Shown here: positions 1 to 42,380 of the stretch, piece after piece
Numbering within the stretch: the first letter of the stretch is position 1
How the letters are laid out: each line of letters begins with the position of its first letter
The notes under the pieces: model-generated
What the model saw: the letters and a program-made list of their open reading frames with translations, nothing else
Databases searched by the model: none
Told to the model about the DNA's origin: nothing
Made by a program: the position numbers and the translations under genes
Assembly: GCA_964016885.1 (NCBI GenBank)
Contig: OZ024740.1
Span: 114,514,001-114,578,000, forward strand
DNA length: 64,000 nucleotides
From: Eledone cirrhosa
Lineage: Eukaryota
Direction of reading: 5' to 3'

Positions 1-252
1 ATTACATATCCAGTGCTTTTATCGAGAATGACACAGCTAGAGACTTATAGAATACTTAGCTGTGTACAGGAACTGGTTTGAAAGAGCGGTTGCCGGTCCG
101 GCAGAAATTAGAATTTGGATATAAAGCTCTGAAATAGCGATATATATGTGAAGACAAACATAGAATATTCGAAAATATTCTGTATGTTTATAATAAACAT
201 TTCGAAGACCCAATCGCTATAGAATAGAATACGTCACGTATTACAATTTGAG

Positions 253-341
253 ATTCTCGATAAAAGCAAGGGAAGTAACCTACGCGTTTCATTCTTATTA
301 GAAATCATCAGGATTACATATCCAGTGCTTTTATCGAGAAT
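253..341 (-). ncRNA. Type I hammerhead ribozyme (312-bp family)
   Basis: Reverse complement of 1156-1244. Confidence 0.8.
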
Positions 342-564
342 GACACAGCTAGAGACTTATAGAATACTTAGCTGTGTACAGGAACTGGTTTGAAAGAGCG
401 GTTGCCGGTCCGGCAGAAATTAGAATTTGGACATAATGCTCTGAAATAGCGATATATATGTGAAGACAAACATAGAATATTCGAAAATATTCTGTATGTT
501 TATAATAAACATTTCGAAGACCCAATCGCTATAGAATAGAATACGTCACGTATTACAATTTGAG

Positions 565-653
565 ATTCTCGATAAAAGCAAGGGAAGTAACCTACGCGTT
601 TCATTCTTATTAGAAATCATCAGGATTACATATCCAGTGCTTTTATCGAGAAT
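565..653 (-). ncRNA. Type I hammerhead ribozyme (312-bp family)
   Basis: Reverse complement of 1156-1244. Confidence 0.8.
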
Positions 654-876
654 GACACAGCTAGAGACTTATAGAATACTTAGCTGTGTACAGGAACTGG
701 TTTAAAAGAGCGGTTGCCGGTCCGGCAGAAATTAGAATTTGGATATAATGCTCTGAAATAGCGATATATATGTGAAGACAAACATAGAATATTCGAAAAT
801 ATTCTGTATGTTTATAATAAACATTTCGAAGACCCAATCGCTATAGAATAGAATACGTCACGTATTACAATTTGAG

Positions 877-965
877 ATTCTCGATAAAAGCAAGGGAAGT
901 AACCTACGCGTTTCATTCTTATTAGAAATCATCAGGATTACATATCCAGTGCTTTTATCGAGAAT
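877..965 (-). ncRNA. Type I hammerhead ribozyme (312-bp family)
   Basis: Reverse complement of 1156-1244. Confidence 0.8.
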
Positions 966-1155
966 GACACAGCTAGAGACTTATATGTTTATTATAAACA
1001 TACAGAATATTTTCGAATATTCTATGTTTGTCTTCACATATATATCGCTATTTCAGAGCATTATATCCAAATTCTAATTTCTGCCGGACCGGCAACCGCT
1101 CTTTCAAACCAGTTCCTGTACACAGCTAAGTATTCTATAAGTCTCTAGCTGTGTC

Positions 1156-1244
1156 ATTCTCGATAAAAGCACTGGATATGTAATCCTGATGATTTCTAAT
1201 AAGAATGAAACGCGTAGGTTACTTCCCTTGCTTTTATCGAGAAT
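1156..1244 (+). ncRNA. Type I hammerhead ribozyme with palindromic minimal stem III
   Basis: Stem I GTAATC/GGTTAC plus a 16-bp distal helix ATTCTCGATAAAAGCA/TGCTTTTATCGAGAAT; CTGATGA 1186-1192; stem II TTCT-AATA-AGAA; GAAA 1207-1210; ACGCGT palindrome; predicted GUA cleavage after 1216. Confidence 0.85.
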
Positions 1245-1467
1245 CTCAAATTGTAATACGTGACGTATTCTATTCTATAGCGATTGGGTCTTCGAAATGT
1301 TTATTATAAACATACAGAATATTTTCGAATATTCTATGTTTGTCTTCACATATATATCACTATTTCAGAGCATTATATCCAAATTCTAATTTCTGCCGGA
1401 CCGGCAACCGCTCTTTCAAACCAGTTCCTGTACACAGCTAAGTATTCTATAAGTCTCTAGCTGTGTC

Positions 1468-1556
1468 ATTCTCGATAAAAGCACTGGATATGTAATCCTG
1501 ATGATTTCTAATAAGAATGAAACGCGTAGGTTACTTCCCTTGCTTTTATCGAGAAT
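1468..1556 (+). ncRNA. Type I hammerhead ribozyme (312-bp family)
   Basis: Same as 1156-1244, offset +312. Confidence 0.85.
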
Positions 1557-1779
1557 CTCAAATTGTAATACGTGACGTATTCTATTCTATAGCGATTGGG
1601 TCTTCGAAATGTTTATTATAAACATACAGAATATTTTCGAATATTCTATGTTTGTGTTCACATATATATCGCTATTTCAGAGCATTATATCCAAATTCTA
1701 ATTTCTGCCGGACCAGCAACCGCTCTTTCAAACCAGTTCCTGTACACAGCTAAGTATTCTATAAGTCTCTAGCTGTGTC

Positions 1780-1868
1780 ATTCTCGATAAAAGCACTGGA
1801 TATGTAATCCTGATGATTTCTAATAAGAATGAAACGCGTAGGTTACTTCCCTTGCTTTTATCGAGAAT
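1780..1868 (+). ncRNA. Type I hammerhead ribozyme (312-bp family)
   Basis: Same as 1156-1244, offset +624. Confidence 0.85.
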
Positions 1869-1970
1869 CTCAAATTGTAATACGTGACGTATTCTATTCT
1901 ATAGCGATTGGGTCTTCGAAATGTTTATTATAAACATACAGAATATTTTCGAATATTCTATGTTTGTCTT

Positions 1971-2015
<45 letters not shown>

Positions 2016-2108
2016 TAACAGAATAACTATGAAGCTTCTTCCCTTCCTTCTACGGTTAGCTCTCCTCTTTGTTGTTATCTTGTCTCACTCGCTTTACGCG
2101 TTTTAATT

Positions 2109-2209
2109 GTCCTAATAACTTAATTTAGTTATTATTGCACCGACGTGAGGTATATGATTTTTAATGCAATGAAATATCTATGATCGTCGGCAAATCACTG
2201 ATGAGGGAC
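2109..2209 (+). ncRNA. Candidate permuted/pseudoknotted hammerhead-like ribozyme with kink-turn (copy 1)
   Basis: AUA site 2152-2154; stem I TGATTT(2155-60)/AAATCA(2192-97); CTGATGA 2198-2204; GAAA 2171-74; stem III GGTAT/ATATC; K-turn TC-TAT-GA-T / T-GA-GG; covariation with 41881-41982. Confidence 0.6.
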
Positions 2210-2627
2210 TTATTTTATTACATGTTATCCATGTGCAACCTGCAGTATTCTTCTCCCCATTTTTTTCACATATATTTACCTAAACTGCGATTCTGTTTTT
2301 TTCTCTCTCTCTCTCTCTCTTACTGCTCCCTCGTTCTCTCTGTTTCTCCTACTTTCTTTCGCCCCCTCTGTCATGTCAGTTAACTCTTCCTCACACTTCC
2401 ACTCACTCACTCACTGTTTCTCCTCTTCTCACTTAACCCCGTTCGTGACGAAAACATTTTCTCTCTTTCTCACATTTGGATTCGTTCCCGAAAGTTCTTT
2501 TTTCTAAGCGCTCATATATTCACCTAGCTTATGCTAACAGAATAACTATGAAGCTTGTTCCCTTCCTTCTACGGTTAGCTCTCCTCTTTGTTGTTATCTT
2601 GTCTCACTCGCTTTACGCGTTTTAATT

Positions 2628-2728
2628 GTCCTAATAACTTAATTTAGTTATTATTGCACCGACGTGAGGTATATGATTTTTAATGCAATGAAATATCTAT
2701 GATCGTCGGCAAATCACTGATGAGGGAC
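2628..2728 (+). ncRNA. Candidate permuted hammerhead-like ribozyme (copy 2)
   Basis: Same motif as 2109-2209. Confidence 0.6.
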
Positions 2729-2812
2729 TTATTTTATTACATGTTATCCATGTGCAACCTGCAGTATTCTTCTCCCCTTTTTTTCACATATATTTACCTA
2801 AACTGCGATTCT

Positions 2813-2884
<72 letters not shown>

Positions 2885-3188
2885 TGCTCCCTCGTTCCCT
2901 CTGTTTCTCCTACTTTCTTTCGCCCCCTCTGTCATGTCAGTTAACTCTTCCTCACACTTCCACTCATTCACTCACTGTTTCTCCTCTTCTCACTTCACCC
3001 CGTTCGTGACGAAAACATTGTCTCTCTTTCTCACATTTGGATTCGTTCCCGAAAGGTCTTTTTTCTAAGCGCTCATATATTCACCTAGCTTATGCTAACA
3101 GAATAACCATGAAGCTTGTTCCCTTCCTTCTACGGTTAGCTCTCCTCTTTGTTGTTATCTTGTCTCACTCGCTTTACGCGTTTTAATT

Positions 3189-3289
3189 GTCCTAATAACT
3201 TAATTTAGTTATTATTGCACCGACGTGAGGTATATGATTTTTAATGCAATGAAATATCTATGATCGTCGGCAAATCACTGATGAGGGAC
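3189..3289 (+). ncRNA. Candidate permuted hammerhead-like ribozyme (copy 3)
   Basis: Same motif as 2109-2209. Confidence 0.6.
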
Positions 3290-3544
3290 TTATTTTATTA
3301 CATGTTATCCATGTGCAACCTGCAGTATTCTTCTCCCCATTTTTTCACATATATATAGGTATATATATGTATGTATATATATAATATCCGTATATGCGAG
3401 CGTATACCTACTCTTGACACAATTCTGAAATACATTTATCTGATTTAATGGACACCTACAGCATTATGATTTATCATGAGATATCAGACATAGGCACACA
3501 CTCATATACACGCACACTCACACACATAAACACACAACACATGT

Positions 3545-3590
<46 letters not shown>

Positions 3591-3675
3591 GAGTGTGTGG
3601 ATAAATTTAATTGTATCGTATGATTTTGGGTCAATGTGTAATATGTATGCACACACACACACACATACACACACG

Positions 3676-3737
<62 letters not shown>

Positions 3738-3857
3738 ACTCACACGGAAACATCCAATCTGTCTACGAAATTCGGCGTCAGATAGACTGCAAGTTATCAT
3801 TTAAAAAGCCTGAGAAAGCAGATTATCAAACGACCTACTGATATGTACTTATGCGCA

Positions 3858-3942
<85 letters not shown>

Positions 3943-3959
3943 GCACAAACACACACTGG

Positions 3960-5300
3960 AATGCCAAGATATAATGTCATATTAGGATAATGAAGTGAAT
4001 GAAGTGAATGAAGCTTTTGACTGAAGTCCTTCGTCAGGAAATGAAATGTGCGGATAGGGAGAAAATGTAACCGGGTTTGTTAGTAGTTAGCTGTGAGTGA
4101 GAGCGTGTGTAACGTTTGTGGAGCAGCGGAGAGCGAATGTAGATTGTTAGTATTATTAGCCATTGAGGCGGTGGTTTGGCAGTATCGGTAGAGGGTTGGA
4201 CGCCATGCTTTGAAGCATAGAGTTACGGCCCTTTATGATCTGAGTTCAAATCCTGCTGAGGTTAACTTTGCCTTTCATCCTTACCCGCGTCGATAAATTA
4301 AAGTACCAGTAATGCAATGGGATAATTATTAGCCACTGAGTTGGTTCGAGTGTGTATATGTAAGGGTGGTAGAGCGGAAAGGTGTGGAGACAGACGGGAG
4401 TCAGTAGTGTTAGTTGTGGTTGATTATGGTACGTTAGTTAATCAGTGGCTGGGGTTAAAATTGTATGGGGATCATATGGGCTTAACTGGTAAATTGATTG
4501 TGTTAGTGTGTCTGGGTATGTTGCTGAAGAAGTGAAGCAAGTGTCGCTAAGGGATGATTGACAAGGCTAACGGAAGAGGAGTGGGGAATAATTTAGACCA
4601 TTTTCGGTCCAAGAGTAAAAATAAAAGTGCACGGCTCATGTCTCAGTGTGTACCATGGGCCCCAGAGCGCGCGATAAAGCCACATACAGTGTGGTTGTGG
4701 GTGAAGTGTCCGGTGGAGGGGAAACGTCGAGCATAGAGTACAACGGATCCCGTAGACACGGCTGCAAGAGGTATATCTGAAGGATTCCTGGATTTGGAAG
4801 GATTGGTCGTTGGTTTCACGGATGGTGATTGAGTTAGTGATGCAACTGCAAAAATGACAGCGGGGTCAGGAGCAGGGGAAGGATCCGGGAGCGGAATTCG
4901 AGGGAGGAAGGGAGCTGCGGAAGAGGAGGATCTCGAGGTTGTGTGTGCGCTTAAAAGGAGAGAGGAGAGGGAGGAGGAAGATGGTGGAGATAGAAGGGTC
5001 CGACCGAAGGCGGCGGAGGAGTCGGAGGACCGTCCTCTGAAGAGGCAAGATGTAAGAGGAAATGGGAATCGGTTAGTGGGGGGGGGGGGGGGATAGGGCG
5101 GTGGTGCGGTCAACTCACGGGCGCGGCTGAGAGCAGTGTGGATCAAGCGCGGGAGATAACCTCGCCGAGTGAAGTGCCCAGCCATGTAATGGTCTTGGGC
5201 CTCAAAGTCATGGGTTTATCTTCATAGGTAGTGGTGACAGAGGGATTGGTAATAGGGATGGAGTGTTTCCTGTGGTTGGGGTGGGATGAGCTGATATCTA
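3960..5300 (-). mobile_element. Decayed Penelope-like element 3' part (RT C-terminus, linker, GIY-YIG start, 3' UTR)
   Basis: Minus ORF HFTRRGYLPRLIHTALSRAR resembles a PLE RT thumb; an alternative frame reads CSRPRCHFC..ESFRYTSCSRVYGIRCTLC, like a GIY-YIG start; a degenerate HHR lies near 4005-4040; boundaries approximate. Confidence 0.7.
4165..4322 (+). mobile_element. tRNA-derived SINE with conserved GCCTTTCATCC..GTCGATAAA..AAGTACCAG core
   Basis: B-box-like GAGTTCAAATCC followed by a core shared by more than 10 copies in the window. Confidence 0.8.
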
Positions 5301-5716
5301 GGGGAGGGAGTCAGTAGATTTAAAGAAGGTGGAGATGTTGAGTGAGCGAATGAAGACGTCAATATAAATGATGTCCAAGAAGTGAACGGGGATCGTGAAC
5401 TCAAGTGCGGATGGCACGAGCGGAGGAACAAGGGACACTAGTCGAGCTGTCCTCGAATATGACGGCCTATAGCTCGGTTATGGGATCAATGAATTGTACT
5501 ACGATTTCGGCCTTAACGAAGCCGACGAATAGGATGGCGTAGTTGGAGCCCATTGTTGTACCAATGGCCACCTCGGTTAACTGTTGGTAGAAATCGCCCG
5601 AAAAGGAAAAGCAGTTGAAGGTGAGGACCAGCCCGGCAAGGTGGGTGAGAATGGAAGTGGAGGCTTGAGCGGAGAGGTGAAGGCCGGGGAAGTGTCAGAG
5701 GGAACGTATCTATATA

Positions 5717-5924
<208 letters not shown>

Positions 5925-6399
5925 AGCTGCGTGTGTGGCTGTATGTGTGCGTGTGTGTGTGCGTATGTGTGAATGTATGTACGTATGTATGTATAAAGAA
6001 AATCAACAATCAACAAGGAAATAAACATGGCAGAACAATACAGTACAATAAAGATGTATATTAATTTATGCGTTGACATTGTAGGAAAATAGTCTTATCA
6101 TTTTCGACGTTAGTACATCGTCGGAAGACAGAATAAGAGGCAAAATATGAAATCTAAAAAGTAAACGTATGCTTATTTAGTCAACCACTATAGAAGATTG
6201 GATTTCAGAACAAAATTCGTGTATTGCAGAGTATCAAAAAGGGAGATAAGCAAGGAAGAGGTATGAACATAACTGCGTGATTATATATACACGTATATAT
6301 ATAATTGCATGAATGGAATTGCATGAATATAGTGAAGAGGGAAATTACCTTAAAAGGTAAGAAATAAGTAAATGAATTGTATGTTATAACTTTGCAGAG

Positions 6400-9380
6400 A
6401 TTGAGAGAAAACAGTCGATAAGACGAGAGTACTTCTCAGTAAATACCGTATTTTGGCGCTCTATGTATTTTGGCACTGTTTTACCATCAGTTCTATAACC
6501 TACATTCACGGCATGCTTTCTGTCCTCACCGTCAAACACTGACTAAACTTACTTGCAGATGTTGCTTTGAAGGGATAATTAAATATCCTATGTTTTAAGA
6601 AATGCAATTATATGCGATATTTTTTATTTTTTATGCTAAGTTGTCGGTCCTTAATTTTTCGTGTCAATCAACGCTTGCGAAAGAATATTTGACAGCCCTT
6701 TTTTTTTCTGTGAAAACATACTTTTACTACAAATAATTTTCTTGTTCTCTTCATTTTGCCAAACATGTGTGTTTTTGTTAAGAGTATCATATTCCTGTAA
6801 AATTACCTTCTTTAACAGTAAAGTATCGTTAGATATTTTCCTGCAAATTGCATATTTGTTATAAATTGTGTAATGTACATTCTCTTAATTTCATCAACAT
6901 TCCAAATTTTTATATTTAGCCTGTAAGTGACAACTGGGATTGCAAGCGCATTTATGGCAGTTAGTTTATTTCTCGAGTTAAGCTCAGTTTTCAAGAAAGC
7001 ACGTACTTTCCAGTAGAATTCCCCTTTCATGATTGTATGGGGAATATCTTGGCTTTCATTGATCACTAGATATATGTAGGTTTGTTCATGTTCTAGTTAT
7101 CTAATTATTCACATCTATTTCTGTTGAGATTATGCTTGTTTTGGCCTATTTTTCCAGTCCAAACTCCATCCTTACATCATCTCTGAACAACTTAATTGTC
7201 TTCAACAGTTCTTCCAATTCGTTGTCATTATTAGCATACAGCTTCAGCTCATTCATATTAAACCGCGGATTTATGCTTGGTTTTGCTGTCTATTTTGTAG
7301 CTATATTTAACTTGGATGAGCGCTAAATACAGCGGTGTGAGTGTAATGCAAAATATCAGAGAAGAAAACGAATTACCTTGAAAAATACCACAGTTAATAC
7401 TTATGGTGATGGAACGTGTAGTTCTATCACTGTGTGACAGTGACGGATTTGTATTCCGTATTTCAGGAGGTTTGATATTACTGGAGAAATCTTCAGAACA
7501 TCCAGTTTATGAGTTGGGAACACTATCAAATGATTTCTTAATTTCAATCCAAGCAATACTCAGATGCCTTTAATTTTTATGACATATTTCCAGAATCATA
7601 CGGTTATTGAGATATTGCTCTTTGCAACCGTAAGTCTGACCACGACAACCTTTCTGCTCAAAAGGGAAAATATGATTTCCATCCATAAATCTGTAGGTTT
7701 TCTCAGTCAAGATTGAAGTAAGACGATAATGTTTTGGAATATTTGTTTCTGTCGATTTTGACAAGAGACATGTTACACCTTGTGCAAAGCAATCAGGATT
7801 TTTGTCAGGATTGTGAATTATTTCGTTATAACATTTTACTAACATATCATGGGTTAGAGAAGATAACCAGAAGCGTGGCTCTTTATCAATACCAGGATAT
7901 TCCAATTGTTGGCTTTCTTTAATGCCAATTCCAGTTCTACTAAAGTCATGTATTACCGATTCTACCTTTCTAAATTGTTGTATGTTTCTTCCATGTTTTT
8001 TATCCATTCTACATTCGTATGATAAGAATTTTCTCTACTCCATAATGTTTTCCAGAATTCATAAATTTCATGAATTGTCTGTGTCCTAATTTCCCTATAT
8101 ACCTTTTTGCATCTGACATAAAACAGCTTATTTTGCCTGTAAAACCTATTTCGCTTTTCAAATAGACTTATTCGTTGAGATCTCACCTGTAATTACTGTT
8201 TCAGGGTTTCTTTCATTGATAGAGTATCAGTTTTTAAAGTTACTTCGTATTTCTTATTCACTTTTCTTCCTTTTTCTTGACATATTTTCAAGCACTTATT
8301 TCCTCCAGGATTGATATTTCTCATCCCATCATTTCAATTTCTTTCTGAATATTTATCTTCGAAGTTATTTTGTGAGTGTTAACGAAAAGACGAAAAGGTT
8401 TTCGTCTTTTCGTTAACCCATATTTCCTTTCTATTACCTTTGCTGCTGTATAAATTACCTCATTTAATTCTGATATATCAGGCTCCACCCTCTCAATTAT
8501 TGCTTTAATAATCGGATTTCCATGTTTCAACTTTTGAAAAGACTCTCTTTCACCCATATTAATATTTTTTTTTTTTTAAAGTTCATTGTGAATTTCTTCT
8601 TTTAGGTTCTATCCGATCTTTATGTTTTTGCGCAGAAGAACCCTCAGCCATATTGTTAATCTGTATTACAGCTTAATTCTGCTCTGCTGTGTTTTTGATA
8701 CCCTCAATGTTCCATTAAATCTCTCCTGGTGACAACAATACAGTGTCTTTGTCTTTTCTGTGACATATTCATTTCTATCCATTTCTGATACTGGTTTTCT
8801 GAAATATATTTAAACATTCCTCTTAATTTCATTTACCTCTGCATCTGCCAGTCTCTTGTTTCTTACATTTGCAACTTTGCTTTCGCTCAGATTTGGTCTG
8901 CTTTCATGATTTCTTTCCTTACAGAATTTACTCTGTGTTTTTATTCCGATTGTTTGCTCAATGAATAATAGAATCCGTATATCACTTCTTCATACTCACC
9001 TCGAGTGTATTTGATACGTTAAGATTTTTTTCTTTCCTGTGGTGCTGAACTTGAAAAGTTTGGGTTGAAATTATTCTCGTTCAAGTGACTATTCATGTTC
9101 GTATTTTGAAAATACCTTTTTTAAGCTGCAGACTTTTCGACCATAGGCTGATTCCTCCCTGAGAGACGTGGTCTTTGTTGACACGGGCGACGACCGATCT
9201 CGTATGTGTTTTTGACGGTAGATATTCTTGGGCCTTTTTGTTGTTTTTTATGTGTTATATCCTTCACCATTAAGAGTTAATTTTGTTCAAGATACCACTT
9301 ATAGGACGATTATCAAGCAAGATTAATGAGCTCATCCTGCCTCTGATACACATCTATTCGTCACCAGGTGCCAGGGGGTT
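6400..9380 (-). mobile_element. Decayed R4/Dong-like non-LTR retrotransposon
   Basis: Minus ORF pieces EQKGCRGQTYGCKEQYLNN, KTELNSRNKLTAINALAIPVVTY, FYRQNKLF; many stops and frameshifts; ends approximate. Confidence 0.8.
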
Positions 9381-10270: not shown

Positions 10271-11542
10271 CATCATCATCATCATCATCATCATCATTTT
10301 ACGTCCGCACTTCCCTGCTCGCAAGGGTGGGTCGAGTCTTATTCAGCACAGCATCTGTCCACTCGTCACGGTCCTTCGTCATCTCCACCGTGAGCCTCAA
10401 CGATCTGAGGTCTGTTCTCACCACCTCCGCCCATGTTTTTCGTGGTCTACCTCTACCACGTCTTCCTTCAACTGGCATTTCCTGGCACTTCTTCACCCAT
10501 CGGTCATCCTCCATGCGCATGACATGTCCATACCACCTGAGTCTCCTCTCCCGTACACTACCTTATATCCCTCTCTGACACAGTTTCTCTCTCAACACAT
10601 TCATGCTGGGTCGTTCACGCACATTTACACTGCACATCCAACGGAGCATGCTTGCCTCATTTCTCTCCAGCCGTCGCATATCCTCTGCAGTTGCTGCCCA
10701 TGTCTGACTACCATGCAGCATCACGCTCCTCACACAGGCATCGTACAACCGGCCTTTCGCACGCAGGGAGAAACCCTTCTTCGTCAGCAGAAGAAGCAGC
10801 TCCCTAAACTTCTTCCAACCCGTCCTTATTCTAGATACTATGGCCTCGGAACACCCTCCCCCAATGCAAATCTGATCTCCTAGGTACCGGAAGCTATCCA
10901 CCACTTATACAGCACCCACCTGCATTTGAAAAAATGTGTCTATCAATGCGACTTCTACTGTCTAATTTCCCTGTACATCTACTGCATACATATTTCTCCC
11001 TACCTGTTAGTTTGCCTGCTATCCCGCTACATCTCTTGTGTACCCAGGATCTGCATTGTGTGTATTTTATATAATTTATGCCAGTTCTTTTTCTGCATAT
11101 CGAACATGGCCACTTCCCTTACGGAATCAGAGTTTTTTCTTCTTTTCTACTCATCAACACTTTTGTCTTAGCTCGGTTCACTCTCAGTCCTCTTGCTTCC
11201 AACTGCTGTTTCCATAGCCAGAATTTATTCTCTAGCTCCTCTACTGATTCTGCTATAAGTACCAGATCGTCAGCATAGAGAAGTTGCCATGGACAGCCAG
11301 TCTTAAACTCCTCTGTTATGGCTTGGAGGACTATAATGAACAAGAGCGGGCTGAGGACCGAACCTTGATGTACTCCTACTTGTATCTGGAATTCCTCACT
11401 AAACTCCATTCCTACCCTGACTTTACTGAGAGTACATCTGTACAAAGTGTGCACTGTCCTCACAAGCCATTCATCAACACCTAGCTTCCTTAGAGACCGC
11501 CAGATGACAGATCGGGGTACCCTATCAAAGGCCTTCTCTAGG

Positions 11543-11545
<3 letters not shown>
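10270..11545 (-). mobile_element. 5'-truncated RTE/RTE-X LINE
   Basis: [44 protein letters not shown]; (GAT)n tail at 10270-10297. Confidence 0.9.
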
Positions 11546-11593
<48 letters not shown>

Positions 11594-11710
11594 CATACAT
11601 AAATCTACATACATACATACATATATACATACATACATTTACGTATATATATAGCTATGCATTTATACATTTGTATATATATACATGCATTTATATTTAA
11701 GTGTGTAAGG

Positions 11711-15139: not shown

Positions 15140-15192
15140 GAGATTCTACAGGACTAGAACTGTTTCATTCATTAGAAATCATCAGGAATCTC
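15140..15192 (-). ncRNA. Type I hammerhead ribozyme within a 129-bp palindrome (15125-15253)
   Basis: Minus strand GAGATTC-CTGATGA-TTTCTAATGAAT-GAAA-CAG ttctagtc CTG-TA^-GAATCTC: 7-bp stem I and 4-bp stem III. Confidence 0.75.
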
Positions 15193-15319
15193 CTGATGAT
15201 TTCTAATGAATGAAACAGTTCTAGTCCTGTAGAATCTCATCTATATTAAAACTGTTATACTCTGCTATGTATTGAGTACCTTACTTACTGTGGTTACCTC
15301 CGATTCAACCCGGAATAAC

Positions 15320-37167: not shown

Positions 37168-37700
<533 letters not shown>

Positions 37701-41836: not shown

Positions 41837-41872
<36 letters not shown>

Positions 41873-41880
41873 TAAAATTA

Positions 41881-41982
41881 GTCCTTCATCAGTGATCTCC
41901 CAGCCTTCATTGGTATTTCATCGCTTTAAAGATCATATACCTCTGGTTGGTACGAGCAACGGCTAAAGAAAGTCGTTGGGAC
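41881..41982 (-). ncRNA. Diverged homolog of the permuted K-turn hammerhead-like motif
   Basis: Minus strand GTCCC AACGACT ttcttt AGCCGTT gCTCGTA CCAACC A GA GG TATA^TGATCT ttaa AGCGAT GAAA TACC AAT GA A GGCTGG g AGATCA CTGATGA AGGAC. Confidence 0.6.
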
Positions 41983-42380
41983 ACGTAAAATAGGGTGAAA
42001 CGAGCGAGACATGTAAACAAACAAAGATGGTAATGCAATAAAGTAAAGCAACGGAGTAAAGGACCCGTGTATAAACCTGTAATTTAATAAGCTCATTCAA
42101 TTACAGGGATATACGCGAGTCCTTTACTCCGTTGCTTTACTTGATATTAGCTCCTTACGTTTCTGCTAGTCGAGCACTATAAATTGAATGGTTATAAGCT
42201 GCCATTTCTAGCGGCTTCTTGTTCTATTCATACCACAAGTCACTCCCTCACGCAGTGGTTTTTTCACATTAAAGTATCCTATTAATTATAATGTAACTCC
42301 CAAACCTCTCGCAGCTTATATGTTCTTCACGCTAGTGGTCTTATAGCTCATGTAAGTGAAAACACACTCTCCTGTGTTTT

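Follow-up and report, generated by a model that had tools for sequence, protein, structure and literature searches.

The tandem repeats at positions 2011-3357 of the window (the whole 64,000-nucleotide stretch of the Eledone cirrhosa genome analyzed here; contig OZ024740.1, positions 114,514,001 to 114,578,000) were found to belong to a dispersed, multi-copy, non-coding family, the units of which each carry a rearranged hammerhead motif. The motif is not a chance occurrence, as its pattern was matched 5,574 times in the genome compared with 3 times in a reversed control. On balance, the array is best read as one insertion of a non-coding retroelement family that carries this rearranged hammerhead, is more likely than not copied from a circular template, and is very likely moved by Penelope-like elements (PLEs).

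Structure of the array and its surroundings

The initial annotation had described 2.5 near-identical units set in (TA)n with one motif per unit, and this arrangement was confirmed: the units are head-to-tail, span 2011-3357, and comprise the following features.

1973-2013, no strand: left-flanking (TA)20 microsatellite, the likely target; the neighboring 312-bp array ends there too
2011-2529, plus strand: unit 1, 519 bp, beginning at an arbitrary phase that marks the 5′-truncation point (other copies start at scattered phases)
2530-3090, plus strand: unit 2, 561 bp, with an expanded CT tract
3091-3357, plus strand: partial unit 3, about half a unit, stopping at the fixed 3′ end of the family
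2296-2320, plus strand: T7(CT)9 tract of unit 1
2815-2881, plus strand: (TC)33.5 tract of unit 2
41866-42040, minus strand: short, 5′-truncated member of an older subfamily that shares the fold, with (TA)n at its end

At the right end of the array, a short, degenerate TA tract is reached at about 3350. The three units are 99% identical over their first 255 nt, and only a few sites outside the pyrimidine tract distinguish unit 1 from unit 2; the difference between the 519- and 561-bp unit lengths is located in the CT tract, as had been annotated. Each of the three units holds the 101-nt motif domain with exactly the same letters (2109-2209, 2628-2728, and 3189-3289). Positions 2154, 2673, and 3234, which had been put forward as cut positions, correspond to H17 of the NUH site (AUA), and cuts predicted there would give monomers of 519 and 561 nt. 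The longest ATG-started ORF on the circularized, non-coding unit is 67 aa. Its GC content is 39%, its body is 72-76% pyrimidine, the monomer is 42% paired when folded as a circle, and the linear RNA of the unit has a folding z-score of −1.85.

Several other features were observed in the window. A 312-bp tandem family, back-to-back with an inversion at 985, occupies 1-1981; each of its units has a minimal type I hammerhead with a palindromic stem III, and the family looks like a canonical retrozyme and has the (TA)n tract in common with the studied array. At about 4400-5700 on the minus strand, broken ORF fragments resemble by eye a Penelope-type reverse transcriptase (RT), a linker, and a GIY-YIG remnant, and Pfam gave no match for the two fragments tested from this region. 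Short type I hammerhead-like cores lie at 15185-15230 (both strands, with an inverted pair among these cores), 29234, and 39838, while LINE-type RT fragments are found on the minus strand at 10300-11600 and 6800-8600, with an RVT_1 match at 11122-11604. Two 53-bp dimers are present in inverted orientation at 37419-37635, and sequence similar to them adjoins several insertions at other loci.

Architecture of the rearranged hammerhead domain

The domain was resolved into the parts listed below.

2109-2209, plus strand: unit 1 hammerhead domain; helix X, formed by 2109-2113 and 2205-2209, closes it
2628-2728, plus strand: unit 2 ribozyme domain, with a cut predicted at 2673/2674
3189-3289, plus strand: unit 3 ribozyme domain, with a cut predicted at 3234/3235
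2114-2133, plus strand: hairpin H, 7 bp, an extra helix between helix X and the stem II strand
2134-2139, plus strand: detached stem II strand, partner 2165-2170, directly before G12
2140-2145, plus strand: helix B strand (I-II interaction helix), partner 2185-2190
2146-2148, plus strand: strand without the bulge in the k-turn predicted to link stem III and helix B
2149-2160, plus strand: block S, with a stem III strand, U16.1 (2153), H17 (A2154), predicted cut 2154/2155, and a stem I strand
2165-2178, plus strand: block G, with a stem II strand, G12-A13-A14 (2171-2173), and a stem III strand
2192-2204, plus strand: first half of block C, with a stem I strand and C3-A9 (CUGAUGA, 2198-2204)

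The block order is a non-circular S-G-C, and every hammerhead core nucleotide is present together with the NUH site. A 4-nt linker joins the stem I strand of block S to the strand before G12, the strand that pairs next to G12 is located 5′ of block S, and the whole domain is closed by helix X, in which the segment following A9 is paired. The stem III strand of block G and the helix B strand are separated by a 6-nt internal loop; the predicted k-turn partner at 2179-2184 reads as a 3-nt bulge followed by G, A, and U. From k-turn rules, the junction between stem III and helix B is predicted to be a k-turn. Two extra helices and this predicted k-turn would brace the core. Across the 30 copies compared, H17 is A or C in all subfamilies (a single G in L055 lies at 15.2/16.2, not at H17), A2148, A2183, and the GAAA of block G are invariant, and G2182 is kept in at least 90%. 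Helix X shows by eye a register shift and covariation between subfamilies.

In the studied superfamily, A9 is nearly always followed by G and the pair adjoining G12 is variable. A family unrelated in sequence (L220, L221, and L223) has the full six-helix fold with a G-C pair adjoining G12, and in this family, as by eye in published Naiad elements, the base after A9 varies while G-C stands next to G12, which favors the detached strand as stem II. A long-range stem II formed via a GAAA at about 2491 was rejected by eye, as its stem III pairing was poor and the stretch is absent from the next subfamily. In window positions 1-6000, Rfam did not detect the motif at E ≤ 5, and elsewhere in that region returned just weak HH9 matches on the 312-bp array and microsatellite noise. 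The best nested fold lacks stems I and II and the stems are weak, so activity is not guaranteed; nonetheless, the fold is likely to self-cleave.

Covariation and selection on the fold

Covariation was examined in 30 copies (29 distinct) picked for diversity and completeness. Across this set 90.6% of cells were paired, compared with 28-43% in slid controls, and a two-sided change was observed in 18 of the 35 pairs; six helices covary across subfamilies, where the tallies are of sequences rather than events and the signal derives from about six subfamilies. None of 500 shuffles reached the score on four of the five measures, while the fifth (further pair types) failed to beat the shuffles. When taken helix by helix, two-sided change was found in (i) all six pairs of helix B; (ii) four of the seven pairs of hairpin H, with 98% of cells paired; (iii) three of the five pairs of the detached stem II strand, with 84% paired; (iv) three of the six pairs of stem I, with 96.6% paired; and (v) one of the six pairs of stem III. 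The core letters belonged to the search pattern, and core invariance therefore arises by selection of the copies and is not independent evidence; independent of the pattern are the stems, U16.1, the three k-turn purines, and the restriction of H17 to A or C. The block order and these paired changes uphold the annotated permuted hammerhead in each unit.

Conservation was found to be concentrated in the domain. In nine pairs of units from distant subfamilies (A3 row excluded), domain identity was 65-77% versus 50-57% when shuffled, while body identity was 53-64% versus 53-61% when shuffled; unit length was kept at 480-531 nt. Two long arrays (L169 and L168) have core-breaking changes common to several of their own units, with a change at G12 in five units of a 10-unit array and in two units of the other, showing DNA-level expansion of dead units. 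Since resident copies decay and the domain is conserved while bodies diverge, selection appears to act on the founders that spread rather than on resident copies.

Distribution of the family in the genome

A DNA search of the 3.0-Gb genome returned 1,996 first-look candidates, and the 40 of these that were scored were 98-100% identical and distributed over five contigs. A looser pattern for diverged subfamilies matched 1,546 times (80 in the control) and families unrelated in sequence accounted for 2,791 matches (228 in the control), all of these pattern totals, including that of the motif itself, being motif counts and not insertion counts. The initial annotation had proposed a retrozyme-like carrier and had named as its refutation a single-locus duplication lacking dispersed copies; the genome-wide matches reported above (5,574 versus 3) speak against such a duplication. 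The studied subfamily is young, at 3% between arrays. Viral and metagenome collections gave two pattern matches each, none of which had the helices on inspection, and three contig-type sequencing runs showed family variants only and no ends. A 521-bp tandem family in which GAAA precedes CUGAUGA was observed at L202, L207, L216, and G000:C1:94,666,000-94,674,000; its stem I does not pair as in the studied motif, and it may represent another wiring.

Insertion ends and the nature of the template

Insertion ends were surveyed at the loci of the first 100 listed pattern matches (contig C1, first 78 Mb). Seventy-one of the 74 sampled loci were mapped; L039-L041 were too diverged, and L037 had been dropped beforehand as a chance pattern match. 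The 3′ end fell at unit position 260-275 in 61 of the 71 loci, at 245 with a variant tail in seven, and elsewhere in three, while the 5′ ends were spread over all four unit quarters (26, 19, 10, and 16). A TA run was present at the 3′ end in 65 loci and TA at the 5′ side in 45, a target in which target-site duplications are unreadable, and an inverted copy was found at the 5′ end in four. The median insertion was 497 bp, less than one unit. In the studied array, the site in question is as follows.

2260-2275, plus strand: internal site where insertions end (U-run, CA, AU repeat); also at 2778-2793 and, as the terminal occurrence, 3340-3357

We infer that reverse transcription starts at this internal site. 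The cut site was crossed by 68 of the 71 insertions, with two or more cut sites crossed by about 20; the other three began at the last cut site or within it, one of them exactly there. Insertions from a linear cut monomer would be about 120 nt long; such insertions were detectable in this sample yet rare. Thus, the template is a circle or an uncut multimer that is internally primed at a fixed site, and the annotation was borne out to the extent that a linear cut monomer is not the template. The non-integer copy number, previously taken as a mark of circular RNA, proved not to be diagnostic, because 3′ ends are fixed and only 5′ ends vary, and internal priming on a circle or on an uncut multimer fits this pattern equally. 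Of the start and end phases for which a survey had been proposed, the starts varied in the 71 loci and the ends were fixed at one site and not random. A conserved tail hairpin as the start signal was discarded, as none of the four tails examined folded better than its shuffled versions (z −0.83 to 0.81).

Arrays of 10-14 units have repeating variant patterns and grew by DNA-level duplication. Variants are common to units within an array, as predicted by both the circle and the multimer models, and the distance within arrays (2.3%) versus between arrays (3.0%) does not separate the two.

A probable Penelope-like partner and a possible link to Naiad elements

An abundant PLE family of the genome was found to have RWR, DKT, LYRDD, and CxCX5C motifs; from comparison of these by eye with the features given by Craig et al., the family would belong to the Hydra clade, and an earlier Neptune-like assignment was dropped on account of the same motifs. 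Its 14 top-hit copies have a mean RT identity of 96.8% over 91 pairs, and the L100 copy has an open 850-aa frame. The six downstream regions read for this family all terminate in a U-run, CA, and a TA repeat (five long and one degenerate), while the other 14 of the 20 PLE downstream regions have different or merely similar ends. The Hydra-clade junction lies about 85 nt after a type I hammerhead, and in an internal copy a short AU repeat continues past the junction site, as it likewise does in the retrozyme unit. The 68 retrozyme junctions read TTTTCA in 33 cases, TTCACA in five, and TTATCA in three, with the rest variable; the match between Hydra and retrozyme junctions is of a short, low-complexity sequence.

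The units had no BLAST match to 50 PLE loci, a sample outside which most PLE families of the genome lie, and the rearranged motif was absent from the same 50 loci. A motif at L268 was considered as part of a PLE; it lies about 700 nt beyond the PLE hammerhead, past a TA run, and was read as a separate insertion. No long ORF indicative of an autonomous carrier was found beside a true motif in L001-L082. The footprints that had been expected of PLE mobilization, namely a fixed 3′ end, 5′ truncation, a (TA)n target, and inverted 5′ copies, were all found among the 71 loci. Overall, mobilization of the family by PLEs is very likely, and the Hydra clade is favored as the present partner. Internal RT initiation has been reported in vitro for an Anolis PLE, for which hammerhead cleavage was dispensable for insertion and the main substrate was uncut RNA (PMC11167929).

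A link to Naiad elements is suggested by published Naiad 3′ ends, including those of two octopus Naiads, in which the same fold with G-C next to G12 was recognized by eye. Among the 30 of 62 supplement places viewed, the fold occurs in at least four sequence families, and one Naiad with the fold carries a half core flag from Craig et al. in those parts of PMC8557442. In the genome, the octopus Naiad motif had two matches, both without RT frames; an RT motif had four, all false; and the best 30 of 150 GIY-YIG matches were all C-terminal. The lack of a Naiad in these three narrow looks is consistent with the statement, in the portion of Craig et al. used here, that cephalopod Naiads are remnants only. 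A Naiad origin and present mobilization by Hydra elements are mutually compatible and would together be the simplest joint reading.

Alternative explanations and proposed mechanism

A different template is conceivable for the same family and enzyme: the uncut tandem transcript itself, with a fold that cuts rarely or late or serves mainly as a protein-binding handle. The fixed 3′ and ragged 5′ ends and the read-through fit this equally well, the median insertion is shorter than one unit, long source arrays are present in the genome, and the Anolis PLE mainly uses uncut RNA in vitro (PMC11167929). However, an active ribozyme would destroy such a template by cutting it some 120 nt 5′ of where priming occurs, the catalytic positions and the NUH rule are kept across families whose bodies have turned over, and the core-breaking changes of long arrays were not seen to spread among the short copies examined (a weak point that concerns top hits). 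We regard the uncut template as rather unlikely, and a circular template as the more plausible of the two, as an active ribozyme would destroy its own uncut template and yet the catalytic core is conserved; the dispensability of cleavage for insertion of the Anolis PLE counts against the circle.

It is improbable that the element still parasitizes Naiad PLEs, with a fold taken from Naiad 3′ ends and movement by Naiad proteins. While the same fold is seen by eye at those ends and Naiads target (TA)n (parts of PMC8557442), no Naiad was detected in the genome by the three narrow, non-exhaustive looks, and cephalopod Naiads are described as remnants in that source, which is at odds with the youth of the subfamily (3% between arrays). 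Most improbable is a plain satellite or local duplication in which a hammerhead-like motif arose by chance, a reading with which the DNA-level duplication in long arrays and the lack of an Rfam score for the motif would agree; it is refuted by thousands of dispersed copies, the fixed 3′ end, and compensatory helix changes.

For the preferred reading of a circle-templated, PLE-moved family, the proposed course of events is the following: (i) the fold would self-cleave the RNA into monomers of about 520 nt; (ii) the monomers would circularize; (iii) (TA)n DNA would be nicked by a Penelope-like RT/GIY-YIG protein that is likely a Hydra-clade one; (iv) priming would occur at the fixed internal site, some 120 nt 3′ of the cut; (v) the enzyme would copy round the ring until drop-off; and (vi) inserted copies would decay neutrally, with CT tracts slipping and a few arrays expanding by DNA duplication. 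More tentatively, and with some doubt, the four-strand hammerhead, with CUGAUGA separated from stem II and docked again through two helices and a k-turn, may be active and born in Naiads, which had been considered hammerhead-free, then freed as a circular RNA parasite that changed over to Hydra-clade enzymes when it adopted their priming site.

If these readings are correct, animal genomes hold a large retrozyme class invisible to current descriptors, a non-circularly permuted ribozyme is present in thousands of copies in an animal genome, hammerhead architecture comprises more than the six permutations of three blocks put forward in 2023, and the apparent lack of hammerheads in Naiads is explained. 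With the priming site, cut site, and candidate enzyme all specified, the question of circle versus uncut multimer becomes directly testable, as does the role of the ribozyme for PLEs.

Comparison with known systems

The statements on published systems in this section refer to parts of the sources cited. The Naiad and Hydra clades (Craig et al. 2021, PMC8557442) have the same (TA)n targeting, 5′ truncation, and inverted 5′ copies as the studied family; Naiad 3′ ends share its fold by eye, and the Hydra-type elements of this genome share its 3′ junction. Unlike these elements, the unit encodes no protein. As described in the parts of PMC8557442 consulted, Hydra elements have canonical type I hammerheads, while Naiads have no canonical hammerhead and eight are flagged 'HHR_half_core' without a structure.

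Type-SGC hammerheads (HRIMA-1 and variants; Eckert et al. 2023, PMC10085705) have the same S-G-C order with all core nucleotides, and in both these and the studied motif a helix connects stems I and II at their distal ends and the linker from stem I to stem II is short (about 3 nt in the former, 4 nt in the latter). Their stem II strand is assumed to follow CUGAnGA directly, whereas in the studied motif it lies 5′ of block S. The studied motif also differs in having helix X and hairpin H between A9 and the stem II strand and a predicted k-turn that joins stem III to the interaction helix; these features set it apart from the main text of PMC10085705, while figures S6-S8 of that paper could show similar peripheral helices. 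No type-SGC RNA is reported from the genome of a known organism in the text of PMC10085705 drawn on here, in contrast to the studied motif, which resides in an animal mobile element. A description of the detached-stem II wiring was not found in the literature covered, which comprised open-access papers and parts of PMC12192606.

Metazoan non-LTR retrozymes (Cervera and de la Pena 2020, PMC7229834; 10.64898/2026.07.22.740005) are the same kind of non-coding, low-GC tandem units with one hammerhead each, are likewise dispersed in thousands of copies, and are tied to PLEs; the 51-972 bp range of Li, Clavereau and Pollet (10.64898/2026.07.22.740005) covers the studied unit length. In Xenopus, eight of nine retrozyme dimers were uncleaved in vitro (10.64898/2026.07.22.740005). 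Two differences stand out: (i) the hammerhead of these retrozymes is type I, whereas that of the studied unit is non-circularly permuted and missed by type I descriptors; and (ii) described retrozyme circles are highly self-paired, whereas the studied monomer, for which the circle is predicted, is pyrimidine-rich and 42% paired. Similarity of the studied unit to a PLE pLTR was not found among the 50 PLE loci sampled. The initial suggestion of a new retrozyme class is better narrowed to a retrozyme variant, which shares the retrozyme life style and differs in the wiring of its ribozyme, S-G-C and not type I.
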